Shown: piece after piece, positions 46,482-52,011 of the stretch | Layout of the letters: every line of letters starts with the position of its first letter | How positions within the stretch are numbered: position 1 is the first letter of the stretch | Source: an uncultured Desulfobacterales bacterium | Lineage (GTDB): Bacteria; Desulfobacterota; Desulfobaccia; Desulfobaccales; 0-14-0-80-60-11 | Length of the DNA stretch: 64,000 nucleotides | Direction: 5' to 3' | NCBI GenBank assembly: GCA_964480485.1 | Contig: CAYZOP010000001.1 | Location: 431,541-495,540 of the forward strand | The notes under the pieces: model-generated | Told to the model about the DNA's origin: nothing | Databases searched by the model: none | What the model saw: only the letters and a program-made list of their open reading frames with translations | Translations under genes and position numbers: made by a program

Positions 46482-47276
46482 TTACGGACTGCTGGGCTTG
46501 GGCGCCTCTTCCTCCGGAATCGTTTCGGGAGCCGGCGCTGGTGGCCGGCGGTAGTAGTAGAGGTAGGTGCTGTAAGCTCCGGAGGCCAGGTAGAGAAGCA
46601 TGAGGGGAAAGCCCATGAGCTCCGGGGCCGCGGCGATGACCACAAACAGCAGCACCAGGGCCACCAGACTCTGGAAGCGGCGCCGGGTAAAGAGCTCCGG
46701 CTTCTTGAAGCTGAAAAACTTGAGGTTGCTCACCATGAGGAAGGAGAGCACGTAGATCATCACCAGGATGTATTTATGCTTCTCTGGGGCCCACTCGCCC
46801 ATCTGGTAGGAAAAGCCGATGGAGGTGGCCACCACCATGGCCGCCGCCGGGATGGGCAGACCGTTGAAGTAGCGGGGGTCCATGGTGCCGGTCTGGACGT
46901 TGAAGCGGGCCAGGCGCAGAGCGCCGCAGACCACGAAGAGGAAGGCCGCCACCCAGCCGAAGCGGCCGAAGGGCTTCAGGGCCCATAAATAAACCAGCAG
47001 CGCCGGCGCCACGCCGAAGGCCACCAGGTCCGAGAGGGAATCATATTGCACCCCGAAGCTGGAGGTGCTGTGCGTCATACGGGCCACCCGGCCGTCCAGA
47101 CCGTCCAGGATCAGGGCGACGAAAATGGCCCAGGCCGCCGTCAGAAACCGCCCCTCCATGGCCGACACGATGGCGAAAAAGCCGGCGAACAGGGCGCCCG
47201 TAGTGATCAGATTGGGGAGCAGATACGCCCCCCGAATCTTACGGTCCTTCTTCTTCCGTCTGCGCCGAAATGCCAT
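46482..47276 (-). CDS. pssA: CDP-diacylglycerol--serine O-phosphatidyltransferase
   Basis: The CDP-alcohol transferase motif is DGLDGRVAR...G..YDSLSDLV. AAGGAG lies upstream of the ATG at 47276. The upstream 86 codons of the track ORF are repeat-element read-through. Confidence 0.9.
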   Translation of the reverse strand: MAFRRRRKKKDRKIRGAYLLPNLITTGALFAGFFAIVSAMEGRFLTAAWAIFVALILDGLDGRVARMTHSTSSFGVQYDSLSDLVAFGVAPALLVYLWALKPFGRFGWVAAFLFVVCGALRLARFNVQTGTMDPRYFNGLPIPAAAMVVATSIGFSYQMGEWAPEKHKYILVMIYVLSFLMVSNLKFFSFKKPELFTRRRFQSLVALVLLFVVIAAAPELMGFPLMLLYLASGAYSTYLYYYRRPPAPAPETIPEEEAPKPSSP

Positions 47277-47430: not shown

Positions 47431-48081
47431 TCACAGCCACCTTGCCACAACGCTCTCGCCGGCGGTGAGGCGGTCGCCTTTGCGAGCGATAATCTCACAT
47501 CGTTCCGGCAAATATACGTCCACCCGAGACCCAAAACAGATCATGCCCAGGCGCTGCCCGCGCTCCAGACGGTCTCCCGGCTGGACGGTGGAGATGGTGC
47601 GCCGGGCCAGCAAACCGGCGATCTGGACGATTTTTATCCGGCACCCCGGTTCCGTTTCCACCACGGTGACCCGCCGCTCGTTGGCAGTAGCCGCGTCCTC
47701 CCGGTAGGCCGCCAGGAAGCGGCCGGGATAATGCCGGACTCCCACTACAATGCCCCCGGCCGGAGCCCGGTTGACGTGCACGTCAAAAACGTTCATGAAG
47801 ATGGCCACCCGGAGGGCCGGTCCCACGTCTCCGTCGGCCACCTCGTCCACCAGAATGACTTTGCCGTCCGCCGGGGCCACGACAGCCCGGGGATCGGCAG
47901 GCGGGATGCGCTCCGGGTCCCGAAAAAAGTAGCCGAAAAAGATTGCCGCAGCCAGGCTCAAGGTAGCAATCGACGGCCAATCCAGCGCCAGGGCCAGGAG
48001 CGCCGCGGCCAGGGCGCCGAAGATAAAGGGATAGCCCGCCCTGGCAAAGGGTCCCGGGGTTTTCGCGGCGGTTGCCGTCAT
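47431..48081 (-). CDS. psd: Phosphatidylserine decarboxylase proenzyme (short, archaeal-type)
   Basis: FFRDPER..P......V.PADGKV, and FGSRVDVYLP containing the G-S self-cleavage site. Confidence 0.85.
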   Translation of the reverse strand: MTATAAKTPGPFARAGYPFIFGALAAALLALALDWPSIATLSLAAAIFFGYFFRDPERIPPADPRAVVAPADGKVILVDEVADGDVGPALRVAIFMNVFDVHVNRAPAGGIVVGVRHYPGRFLAAYREDAATANERRVTVVETEPGCRIKIVQIAGLLARRTISTVQPGDRLERGQRLGMICFGSRVDVYLPERCEIIARKGDRLTAGESVVARWL

Positions 48082-48211
48082 AGCTTTGGAGGCGCAACCC
48101 GTCCCCGGGGGCAATGGTCCCCGGAAGTCCGGTTTCAGGGAAACGCACAGGCGATGGGGTGCCAGTCTTTCCCGCACCGCCTTGGCGGTTTTCCTTAGTC
48201 AAACTTCAGAA

Positions 48212-49204
48212 TTAGCGCTTCAACCAGGACATCAGGCTGCGGAGCTTCTTTCCCACCTCCTCGATGGGGTGCTCCGCCTCCAGGCGCCGCAGCGCGTTGA
48301 ACACCGGCCGCCCGGCCTGATTCTCCAGGATCCACTCCTTGGCGAACTCGCCGGTCTGCACCTCGGCGAGAATCTGGCGCATCTCCTCCCGGGTTTCCTC
48401 GGTGATGATGCGTTTGCCCCGGGTGTAGTCGCCGAACTCCGCGGTGTCGCTCACCGAGTAGCGCATGTAGCTGATGCCGCCCTGGTAGAAGAGGTCCACA
48501 ATGAGCTTGAGCTCATGCAGGCACTCGTAATAGGCGATTTCCGGGGCGTAGCCCGCCTCCACCAGGGTGTCAAAGCCGGCCTTCACCAGCTCGGAAACGC
48601 CGCCGCAGAGCACGCACTGCTCGCCGAAGAGGTCGGTTTCGGTCTCCTCCTTGAACGTGGTCTCCAGCACTGCGGCCCTCGTGGCGCCGATGCCTTTGGC
48701 GTAGGCCAGCGCGGTTTTCATGGCGTTGCCCGAGGCGTCCTGATGCACCGCCACCAGACACGGCACCCCGGCGCCCTTCTCGTATTCGCTCCTCACCAGA
48801 TGCCCCGGACCCTTGGGGGCCACCATGATCACGTCGATGGAAGGGTCAGGAACGATTTGCCCGTAATGAATGTTGAACCCATGGGAAAACAGCAGCGTCT
48901 TGCCGTTCATATGGGGCTTGAGATCGTTTTCATAGAGCCGGGCCTGGACGTGGTCCTGGGTGAGGATCTGCACCACCGCCGCCTGGGCTGCGGCCTCGGC
49001 CGCGCTCACCGGCTTGAAGCCGTATTTCACCGCCAGCTCGTAGTTGGGGGTGCCGGGCATCTCGGAAACGATGACGTCCACCCCGCTGTCTCTCAGGTTC
49101 AACGCCTGGGCGTGACCCTGGGAGCCGAAGCCGATGATGGCCACTTTTTTTCCGGATAAGACAGCTAAATCCGCGTCCTGGTCATAGTAGATGGTGATCG
49201 CCAT
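48212..49204 (-). CDS. ilvC: Ketol-acid reductoisomerase
   Basis: IYYDQDADL..., [26 protein letters not shown] lies upstream of the ATG at 49204. Confidence 0.97.
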
Positions 49205-49228
49205 GCAGGCTCCTTTCCCTGGCAAAAA

Positions 49229-49549
49229 TCAATACGAGAGAATCTTGTCCGCCTTCTTCACCTGTTCATGGAGAATCTTCATATTCCCCAGTTGGATGGG
49301 GGCGGCGGCCTCCGCACCGCGGAGGGCGAGGCATTTCCCTCAGGCATAGAGGACGCCTTCGCTCAAGCCGAAGAGCTTGGCCCGTTCCCGAATGGGAAAT
49401 AGGGGGGAATCACCGGCATACAGATCGGTGGCCGGACCGTTGAGAAACACCGTGACCTCTTCCCCCTCGTTGAGGAGAACATTGGCGAACCGCAGGGCAT
49501 TCCATTTGATTTGCGGGTCCGGGGTGGAAAGCACAAGGAGCACCTGCAT
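49229..49549 (-). CDS. DsrE-like sulfur-relay family protein read through an in-frame UGA (candidate selenoprotein, U at codon 70, U-G-K-C motif)
   Basis: Track ORF 49340..49732 ends ...GLSEGVLYA-TGA. The same frame continues GKCLALRGAEAAAPIQLGNMKILHEQVKKADKILSY-TGA(49229). The joined 106-aa product has the length and layout of DsrE-like proteins, with the UGA where they carry the conserved Cys. Confidence 0.68.
49307..49327 (-). promoter_or_regulatory. SECIS-like hairpin downstream of the DsrE-like UGA
   Basis: The mRNA reads UGA-N14-CCUCCGC-GGU-GCGGAGG. This is a 7-bp GC-rich stem extendable by 2 bp, with GGU in the apical loop about 21 nt after UGA. Confidence 0.5.
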
Positions 49550-49559
49550 GAGCCGGCCT

Positions 49560-50063
49560 CTAATCCTTCTTGGCCCGCTGGATGGCCAAGGAGCCGCTCC
49601 GAACCACGTCCAGGATGCCGTGGATCTTGAGGAGGCCCAGCACCGCCTCCAGTTTTTCGTGGGTGCCGGTGATCTCCAGGGTGTAGGTGGTGGGGCTGAC
49701 GTCCACCACCCGGCAGCGGAAGATGTCGGCAATTCTCAGCACTTCGGCCCGGGATTTTTCTTCGGCCTTGACGGTGACCAAGGCCATTTCCCGCTCCACA
49801 TGCTCCAGTTCGCTTAAGTCCACCACCTTGACGGTGTTGATAAGTTTGCGCAACTGTTTGATGATCTGTTCGATGATCTGCTCGTCGCCGCTTGTGACCA
49901 GGGTGATGCGGGAGACGGCCGGGTCCATGGTTTCGGCCACACACAGGGATTCGATGTTGAAGCCCCGGCCGGAAAACAGCCCGGTGACCCGGGAGAGCAC
50001 CCCGGGCTGGTTGTCCACCCACACGGAAATGGTATGCCGCCTGACATTTTTCGCCGATTCCAT
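49560..50063 (-). CDS. ilvN: Acetolactate synthase small (regulatory) subunit
   Basis: HTISVWVDNQPGVLSRVTGLFSGRGFNIESL is the ACT domain. TAAGGAGA lies upstream of the ATG at 50063. Confidence 0.93.
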   Translation of the reverse strand: MESAKNVRRHTISVWVDNQPGVLSRVTGLFSGRGFNIESLCVAETMDPAVSRITLVTSGDEQIIEQIIKQLRKLINTVKVVDLSELEHVEREMALVTVKAEEKSRAEVLRIADIFRCRVVDVSPTTYTLEITGTHEKLEAVLGLLKIHGILDVVRSGSLAIQRAKKD

Positions 50064-50074
50064 TCTCGATCTCC

Positions 50075-51778
50075 TTATGCCAAGAGCATCTCGTGGGTGG
50101 CCTTGCCCGGCGGCACCATGGGCATGACGCACTCCTCCCGGTCCACCACGAAGTCCATGACCACCGGCCGGGGAGTCTCCATGGCTTTCCTGATCACCGG
50201 CTCCACTTCCTCGGGCTTGGTGGCCCGCAAACCCACCGCGCCGAAGGCCTCGGCCACCTTGACGAAGTCCGGCTGGGCCGAGAGGTCCGTGGCGCTGTAG
50301 CGCCGGTCGTAGAGCAGCTGCTGCCACTGGCGCACCATCCCTAAGAAATTGTTGTTCAGGATGGCGATCTTCACCGGCAGGTTGTTCTCCACCACGGTGG
50401 TGAGTTCCTGAATGTTCATCAGGATGCTGCCGTCGCCGGCGATGTCGATGACGATGTCGCCCGCCCTGGCCACCTGCACCCCCATGGCCGCAGGGAAGCC
50501 GTAGCCCATGGCCCCCAGGCCGCCGGAGGTCATGAACTGGCGGGCCCGCTTGAAGCGGAAGAACTGGGCGGCCCACATCTGGTTCTGACCCACCTCGGTG
50601 GTGATGTAGGCATCGCCCCCGGTCACCTCCCAGAGCTTTTCCACCACGAACTGGGGCTTGATGACTTCCTTAGATTTTTTGTATTTCAGCGGGTGCTTCT
50701 TTTCCCAGCCCCGGATGCGCTCCAGCCATTCTTCCCGGATGGCGGCCCAGTCCCGGGTCTCCTCTTTTTTCACCAGGTTGTTCAACTGGTGGAGGGCATC
50801 CCGGCAGTCGCCCACGATGGGAATGTCCACCACCACGTTCTTGCTGATGGAGCTGGGGTCCACGTCCACGTGGATGATCTTGGCGTGGGGCGCGAAGGCG
50901 TCCAGGCGGCCGGTGACCCGGTCGTCGAAGCGGGCCCCCACGGCGATGAGCACGTCGGAGTTGGCCACCGCCATGTTGGCGCAGTAGGTGCCGTGCATCC
51001 CCAGCATGCCCATCCACAGGGGATGGATGCCGGGAAAGCCGCCCAGCCCCATGAGGGTGCTGGTCACCGGAATCTGCAGGGCCTCGGCGAATTTCACCAG
51101 CTCCGCCGAGGCGTTGCTGTGAATGATGCCGCCGCCGGTATAGAGCACCGGCTGCTTGGCCGCCAGGATGAGGTCCAGGGCCCGCTTCACCTGCCGAGGG
51201 TTGGCGTGCAGCGTCGGCTGGTAGCTGACGATCTTGATGTCCTTCGGGTTGATGGGCTCCGGCACCATGCTGGCCTGCTGAACGTTCTTGGGGAGGTCCA
51301 CCAGGACGGGCCCCGGCCGGCCCGAACGGGCGATGTAAAAGGCTTCGTGAATGGTGCGGGCCAAATGCTTGATGTCCGTCACCAGGTAGTTGTGCTTGGT
51401 GCAGGGCCGGGTGATGCCCACGATGTCCACTTCCTGGAAGGCGTCGTTGCCGATGAGCGCCGTGGGCACCTGGCCGGTGAAGACCACGATGGGGATGGAG
51501 TCCATGTAGGCGCTGGCGATGCCGGTCACCGTGTTGGTGGCGCCGGGACCGGACGTCACCAGGGCCACCCCCACTTTGTCCGCCGCCCGGGCGTAGCCGT
51601 CCGCGGCATGCACCGCCGCTTGTTCGTGGCGCACCAGGTAGTGCTTGATATGGGGCCGCCGGGTAAGTTCGTCATAGATGTCAATGACCGCCCCTCCGGG
51701 GTAGCCGAAGATGTGCTGCACCCCTTCCTTCTCCAGGCAGTCTAAAATGATCTGGGCGCCCGTCCTTTTCGTGCTCAT
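50075..51778 (-). CDS. ilvB: Acetolactate synthase large subunit
   Basis: TPP enzyme motifs are present ([28 protein letters not shown]...NN). The 567 aa length is typical. Confidence 0.97.
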
Positions 51779-52011
51779 GTGACTGCTTCCTTTTCCCGAT
51801 ACTTGGCCAAAATCTGCTCAATGCGGTCCCGGCCGGCCAGTTTCAGTTTCTGCAACCGTTTCTTTTCCAGGGTCTCTTCACTGGTTAAATACGGGCGGCG
51901 GTTAAATTCCTCCAGCCGGCGTTCGAATTCCTCGTGCTCTTCCATGCGGCGCTTCAGTTCCGGGTCCTGGTCGATGAAGCGCTGGATGAGGTCCAAATCC
52001 TGTTTCTCCAT
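51775..52011 (-). CDS. DUF465 (YdcH-like) coiled-coil protein
   Basis: The 78-aa charged helical sequence ([21 protein letters not shown].....[16 protein letters not shown]) has an ATGA overlap with ilvB. Confidence 0.7.

Follow-up and report, generated by a model that had tools for sequence, protein, structure and literature searches.

The locus and its reading frame

The window analysed here, that is the whole stretch of 64,000 nucleotides (nt) from contig CAYZOP010000001.1 of the uncultured Desulfobacterales assembly GCA_964480485.1, carries on its minus strand a small gene, lying between ilvN and ilvC, whose open reading frame (ORF) is interrupted by a UGA codon. In our judgement this is very probably a true selenoprotein gene, whose product is a single domain of 106 residues with the DsrE/YchN fold. 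Its features are the following.

49229..49549, minus strand: DsrE/YchN-like gene, very probably encoding a selenoprotein; 106 codons, including the codon of the predicted selenocysteine (Sec) 70, plus the terminal TGA
49557..49560, minus strand: GAGG, a Shine-Dalgarno-like motif 7 nt upstream of the ATG, overlapping the TAG stop of ilvN
49340..49342, minus strand: in-frame UGA, read as the putative selenocysteine U70 of a UGKC motif; the column is conserved in homologues
49309..49325, minus strand: candidate selenocysteine insertion sequence (SECIS), a mini-hairpin CCUCCGC-GGU-GCGGAGG with a 7-bp stem and a GGU loop, by fold and comparative evidence
49229..49231, minus strand: terminal TGA, the true stop of the gene; homologues end at the same column

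Read from the sequence, the ORF starts at the ATG at 49549-49547 and runs on the minus strand through 69 sense codons, ending in ...LSEGVLYA, to the in-frame TGA at 49342-49340, after which come 36 more sense codons (GKCLALRGAEAAAPIQLGNMKILHEQVKKADKILSY) and the TGA at 49231-49229. An earlier, sequence-only reading of this DNA had described a read-through ORF of 106 amino acids (aa) with an in-frame TGA and 36 further codons, all of which are present; it had also placed the terminal TGA 24 nt before the Shine-Dalgarno sequence of ilvC, and here it has to be corrected, the 24 nt being the distance to the ilvC start codon itself (ATG at 49204). The window copy has no defect besides the in-frame TGA. 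Homologues stop at the column of the terminal TGA, with TAA, TAG or TGA, and downstream of this terminal codon the sequence reads without any hairpin like the SECIS candidate.

Conservation of the UGA column and of the frame beyond it

A sample of 401 genomes of the phylum was searched, and 72 of these contained a homologue, at 81 matched places in all, with exactly one in-frame TGA in 61 of the 81. The TGA occupies the identical alignment column in every one of the 24 distinct Sec forms extracted, and the six extracted Cys forms have TGC or TGT at that column, giving ACGKC or ACGTC, so that the proposed position of the UGA, at the conserved active-site Cys of a DsrE-like protein, is where Cys homologues do carry Cys. 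The second Cys of the motif is less constant: it is replaced in eight of the 24 Sec forms, by Leu in UGKL (L034, L037-L042) or by Ser in UGKS (L032), and the UxxC motif thus does not hold across the set of Sec forms sampled here. One homologue, L027 (G129:C1:9245-9562), has, besides its Sec TGA, a TAG in place of the codon for the conserved Trp16, and may be a pseudogene or reflect a sequencing error.

In an exhaustive search of 1.84 billion cluster representatives (50% identity) 151 relatives were recovered, including 78 of full length (100-115 aa), 71 of which have CxxC, mostly as CGTC; 14 of the 151 representatives measure about 69 aa, as Sec forms do when truncated at their UGA. Of the 42 relatives that a word-based protein search gave, nearly all are listed in the database as exactly 69 aa; these 42 closest entries are either truncated at residue 69 or carry a spurious N-terminal extension. 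The sequence-only reading had named homologues ending as proteins of about 69 aa, or an unconserved stretch downstream, as findings that would speak against a selenoprotein. Homologues are indeed annotated in this way, but as an artefact of gene calling: the DNA of relatives annotated with 69 aa has a TGA at that point and then a conserved open frame, and in public contigs the tail has been called as a separate 33-aa ORF (L050-L053, 4220-4321; L089, 1066-1167; L090, 3220-3321). Over the post-UGA region the ratio of non-synonymous to synonymous substitution rates (dN/dS) comes to 0.20, 0.28 and 0.11 for the three closest pairs; the post-UGA differences between close pairs are in excess at third codon positions. 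The 36 codons past the UGA are conserved as protein and are under purifying selection.

The SECIS hairpin

The hairpin begins 14 nt after the UGA (UGA to stem base), and 21 nt separate its loop from the UGA. All 21 ungapped Sec forms have a 7-bp stem and a 3-nt GGN loop at the identical distance from the UGA; 98.6% of the cells of this alignment pair, and in five of the seven stem pairs both sides have changed. The covariation score of 0.378 compares with a mean of 0.160 for shuffled alignments and was reached by none of 500 shuffles, and when, as a control, the 3' arm was slid by 1-3 columns, pairing fell to 39-58%. The hairpin is missing in four of the six Cys forms, a partial stem being kept in L031 and L033. 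The proposal that CCUCCGC-GGU-GCGGAGG is a bacterial SECIS is well borne out by this conservation and covariation among the Sec forms. In E. coli fdhF the minimal element is a mini-hairpin of 17 nt at about 11 nt from the UGA, a geometry similar to the one found here (17 nt, at a distance of 14 nt). The published hallmark of the bacterial SECIS is a small apical loop with a G shortly 3' of the UGA (PMC1088965).

The stem overlaps codons 77-82 of the gene, so that compensatory changes in the stem are at the same time paired amino-acid changes. The majority of relatives have CAC GGN GUG (His-Gly-Val) at the stem codons, L021 of the same genus has CGC GGA GUG (Arg-Gly-Val), a G-U pair intermediate, and the window has CGC GGU GCG (Arg-Gly-Ala), with a G-C pair. 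RNA structure appears to shape the protein sequence at codons 77-82.

Domain and fold of the read-through product

Whether residue 70 is entered as U or as C, the 106-aa product matches the Pfam family DsrE (PF02635) at 34.1 bits over residues 2-105, covering the whole domain (profile positions 2-115 of 116), whereas the truncated 69-aa form scores 15.9 bits, under the gathering cut-off of 22.7 bits. In a PF02635 search of the whole genome the locus scores 24.9 bits, above the cut-off and with one TGA inside.

An AlphaFold2 model of the 106-aa protein, built on an alignment of 27 relatives, has a predicted local distance difference test score (pLDDT) of 96.5 and a predicted template modelling score (pTM) of 0.89. 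In this model the post-UGA segment forms a helix (71-76), a strand (85-88), a second helix (90-99) and a last strand (102-105), and Sec70, within UGKC, lies where strand 4 ends and helix 71-76 begins. The top eight Foldseek matches in the PDB all belong to the DsrE family (3mc3, 3pnx_A, 3pnx_B, 1jx7, 2hy5_A, 2fb6, 2qs7 and 2pd2; TMq 0.74-0.86), with TM values of 0.86 for YchN (1jx7), 0.84 for DsrE of DsrEFH (2hy5_A) and 0.81 for the Sulfolobus DsrE/DsrF-like protein (3mc3). By profile search the sole significant relative of solved structure is E. coli YchN (1jx7; E 3.7e-7, full length), and the Sec column aligns to the first Cys of its CKTC motif. The genome itself encodes a Cys paralogue (C2:322763-323104; L001, minus-strand ORF 1492-2043) with the sequence ...LLVCKPCAESR..., in which the two Cys of VCKPC align to Sec70 and Cys73; the YchN-like fold is thereby present in this genome in two versions, one with Sec and one with Cys.

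Selenocysteine machinery of the genome

The genome (2.87 Mb in 17 contigs, 99.86% complete) was searched for the Sec machinery, as the sequence-only reading had proposed. Profile searches gave selB (356 bits) and selA (615 bits), both above cut-off, and two selD genes, at C13:7382-8299 (L013) and C4:55950-56867 (L014), with 374 and 370 bits, above the TIGR00476 cut-off, and Aragorn found tRNA-SeC(tca) at C5:203674-203771. Each of the two selD genes contains one in-frame TGA, two Sec-containing SelD paralogues thus occurring in a single 2.87-Mb genome. The selenoprotein gene and the two TGA-containing selD genes together support the view that the genome uses UGA as Sec, as had been suggested from the window gene as internal evidence.

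Position in the ilv operon and among relatives

Around the gene lie the following.

50075..51778, minus strand: ilvB, acetolactate synthase large subunit (Pfam TPP_enzyme_N/M/C), in the same operon
49560..50066, minus strand: ilvN, acetolactate synthase small subunit (Pfam ALS_ss_C, ACT_AHAS_ss), the upstream neighbour
48212..49204, minus strand: ilvC, ketol-acid reductoisomerase (Pfam KARI_N, KARI_C), the downstream neighbour
47431..48177: psd, a flanking gene (Pfam)
46482..47276: pssA-like CDP-alcohol phosphatidyltransferase gene, a flanking gene (Pfam)

A near-consensus, promoter-like site lies ahead of ilvB at 52082-52054, and between ilvN, the selenoprotein gene and ilvC the coding (minus) strand has no terminator-like site.

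The order ilvB-ilvN-dsrE-ilvC-psd-pssA recurs in two other intact members of the genus, making three genomes of the genus in all. The same order is found also in G426, which belongs to a second genus of the family (64% identity), and in metagenome contigs with products 78-81% identical, one of these being labelled Desulfobacca acetoxidans by UniRef. Most genomes of the family have an ilvN-ilvC spacer of 95-250 nt with no gene inside. Two relatives have damaged copies in this gap: in G413 (L064), of the same genus, the copy has decayed, a TAG and a frameshift following within a few codons of the Sec UGA, and G415 (L059), from a different genus of the family, retains no more than the final 35 codons (EKCMAIHGVD...ADKILSY*). 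The G413 copy could be a pseudogene or an assembly error; the G415 remnant is preceded by repeat-like sequence.

Outside this clade, ilv genes were near none of the 26 other phylum loci tested, and the neighbours of homologues in five further metagenome contigs are PEPCK, peptidase S58 and a phosphoribosyltransferase, HDOD, PPDK and MltA, or a small NIR_SIR protein. The novelty that the sequence-only reading saw in the location within a branched-chain amino-acid operon therefore survives in part: the position is genuine and a subclade has conserved it, but the contexts elsewhere are unrelated and the gene is eroded or missing in close relatives. The operon position goes back to an old insertion, restricted to one lineage and repeatedly lost, and is confined to part of one bacterial family.

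Discussion

Alternatives to a selenoprotein gene

If UGA70 were an ordinary stop, the product would have 69 aa, and the 33-36 codons downstream would be either a small ORF of their own or a spacer that is not translated. Every one of the 42 database homologues has an annotated length of about 69 aa, and public gene calls do place a 33-aa ORF behind the 69-aa one; yet the 69-aa fragment stays under the Pfam cut-off and only the read-through product covers the whole domain, the modelled fold requires the C-terminal helices and strands, the Cys forms run on unbroken for 106 aa and have Cys where the others have Sec, the frame and the protein sequence past the UGA are under purifying selection, and the hairpin covaries. 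We give termination at UGA70 a very slim chance. Next to none is left to a pseudogene, in which a DsrE-like gene would have been inactivated by a nonsense change from TGC or TGT to TGA at its active-site Cys codon: the change takes one step, and decayed copies do exist in G413 and G415, but the same TGA stands at 61 places in many genera and families with the downstream frame intact, the post-UGA dN/dS is 0.11-0.28, and the window copy is otherwise without defect. UGA70 might also be read through without Sec, by near-cognate Trp or Cys or by Cys inserted through the Sec machinery under selenium scarcity, and this has a somewhat better, though still slim, chance, as the present computations do not discriminate between inserted residues and Cys can serve at this position in homologues. 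The conserved SelB-type hairpin, with its G-rich loop and fixed spacing, and the complete Sec machinery, including selenoprotein SelD, nevertheless form the standard signature of Sec; of a general reassignment of UGA there is no sign, since the selenoprotein gene itself ends in TGA.

A different matter is whether the selenoprotein is tied to the ilv/leu pathway, be it in sulfur supply or repair for the Fe-S enzymes IlvD/LeuCD or in redox regulation of acetohydroxyacid synthase or ketol-acid reductoisomerase. The ilvN-ilvC position is kept in the genus, in G426 and in the Desulfobacca-labelled metagenome contigs, and the gene is closely packed and appears to be translationally coupled. We think such a tie has a small chance only. 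The gene stands in unrelated contexts in the other 26 phylum loci and the five further contigs; most genomes of the family have no gene in the gap and others have decayed copies, so that the ilv operon works without the selenoprotein; and the operon also holds psd and pssA, so that adjacency carries little functional weight. Given a gene decayed or absent in close relatives and an operon of mixed content, a link to branched-chain amino-acid synthesis is unlikely, and it is similarly improbable that the protein serves the pathway of the ilvBN-ilvC-psd-pssA-leuA operon and was for this reason recruited there. If true, such a link would for the first time assign a function to the YchN-like branch of the DsrE family and tie selenium to branched-chain amino-acid synthesis.

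Weight of the evidence for selenocysteine at residue 70

Returning to a selenoprotein of the DsrE/YchN fold, several points weigh against it or against parts of it. The hairpin taken by itself is unremarkable: its 71-nt fold has z = -1.04, 30 of 200 shuffles folding equally well or better, and an Rfam scan of positions 48000-51000 (E up to 10) yielded neither a SECIS nor any other family of note. As a hairpin in GC-rich DNA is not exceptional in single-sequence folding, its significance comes only from the comparative evidence. No NCBIfam family was found for the read-through protein. We infer Sec insertion from the conserved, covarying hairpin together with the machinery, and likewise only infer that the gene is transcribed. 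The loss of the second Cys in eight of 24 Sec forms speaks against an obligate redox couple of the UxxC dithiol type, and the chemistry suggested below is drawn from relatives at 14-23% identity, YchN itself being a protein without established function.

A possible mechanism

We suggest that the selenoprotein gene would be co-transcribed with ilvB-ilvN-...-ilvC-psd-pssA, and that the 17-nt hairpin, 14 nt past UGA70, would recruit SelB with Sec-tRNA(Sec), so that selenocysteine would be inserted in place of termination. Translation would then go 36 codons further, to the terminal UGA107, which, being without a hairpin, would terminate it. Sec70 may be the nucleophile of a small, probably oligomeric sulfur or selenium carrier or redox protein of the DsrE/YchN type (the YchN crystal entry 1jx7 holds six chains), and might take up sulfane sulfur, thiosulfonate or selenium as an Se-S or Se-Se adduct, with Cys73 as an optional resolving residue. 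Since the second Cys is replaced by Leu or Ser in eight of the 24 Sec forms, a resolving Cys is dispensable in those proteins, and this favours a single-nucleophile carrier over an obligate UxxC redox couple.

The carrier chemistry is suggested by likeness to DsrE-Cys78, TusD-Cys78 and DsrE3A, and we hold it with low confidence, no function having been established for YchN-like proteins. Both DsrE-Cys78 and TusD-Cys78 act as persulfide carriers (PMC3397948), and thiosulfonate transfer is reported for DsrE3A (PMC4175335).

Relation to known DsrE-like proteins

A DsrE-like selenoprotein family (Pfam02635, with UxxC) was described from Sargasso Sea data by Zhang and Gladyshev in 2005 (PMC1088965), a member was reported from Desulfovibrio vulgaris in a 2006 survey (PMC1794560), and the family is listed in catalogues of 2022 and 2026, with WP_014524487.1 as representative (2026 review, PMC13188914); the sequence-only reading was thus right to call it a recognised prokaryotic selenoprotein family. 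The window gene shares with this family PF02635, Sec in UxxC, the existence of Cys homologues, a SECIS with a G in a small apical loop, and occurrence in anaerobes of deltaproteobacterial type. It differs in lying inside an ilvBN-ilvC operon, and a third of the Sec forms sampled here are UGKL or UGKS, without the second Cys. By shared Pfam family, motif and taxon (representatives WP_014524487.1 and AACY01486889) the window gene would belong to the 2005 family, and it is very probably a new, mis-annotated member of an already published selenoprotein family.

E. coli YchN (1JX7) is the closest solved structure (rmsd 2.5 at the TM and E values given above), with 117 aa against 106 and CKTC where the window protein has UGKC. 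It differs in having Cys for Sec, in several short insertions and in an identity of only about 19%, and, having no established function, it offers no mechanism; a literature search for YchN together with DsrE found nothing. DsrE of DsrEFH from A. vinosum (2HY5) has the same fold; in the model of the window protein Sec70 stands at a strand-to-helix junction. In DsrE/TusD a single essential nucleophilic Cys78 carries the persulfide (PMC3397948), and the same chemistry is proposed, by analogy, for Sec70. The identity between DsrE of DsrEFH/TusD and the window protein is again about 19%, and DsrEFH and TusBCD are heterohexamers with DsrF/DsrH (TusC/TusB) encoded next door, whereas the window gene is solitary. 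Membership of a DsrEFH complex was considered and rejected, the neighbours being ilvN and ilvC and there being no DsrF/TusC or DsrH/TusB partner genes.

YedF and SaoD also have a DsrE-like domain and a CGxC or CxxC motif and occur in selenium-using organisms, and their DsrE-like domains have been linked to selenium or metal handling (PMC5322559; bioRxiv 10.1101/2022.07.06.499078). YedF differs in an extra SirA/TusA-like domain and in not being itself a selenoprotein, and members of SaoD were 'never detected as selenoproteins'. Unlike these, the window gene has no SirA/TusA-like domain and no SAO neighbourhood, and on these grounds a YedF or SaoD identity was rejected.

This gene leaves knowledge of selenoproteins and of branched-chain amino-acid synthesis unaltered, and its operon context is a curiosity of one lineage. 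What can be reused is the annotation fix and a well-supported, family-specific SECIS; the alignment together with the covarying hairpin would permit automatic correction of truncated annotations.

Genes flanking the homologues and the operon

When the ORFs flanking 30 homologues were clustered, no partner emerged that many loci share, the ORFs being mostly spurious, GC-rich and in alternative frames, and the public contigs encoding homologues that were looked up showed no common partner gene either. Sporadic neighbours hint at sulfur or metalloid chemistry, none of them recurring widely: a small NIR_SIR (sulfite/nitrite reductase-like) protein adjoins the homologue in L089 (135-788), a Cys-rich S-adenosylmethionine-methyltransferase-like ORF is seen in the flanks of L032, L036 and L049, and ArsR-like regulators in those of L030, L031, L033 and L042, the latter two kinds being named by eye.

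Ahead of ilvB, at 51775-52011 on the minus strand, lies an ORF of 78 aa with no Pfam match at E 1e-5; its counterpart in L087 has a weak match to DUF465. The 78-aa ORF overlaps the start of ilvB by 4 nt, and does likewise in related contigs.

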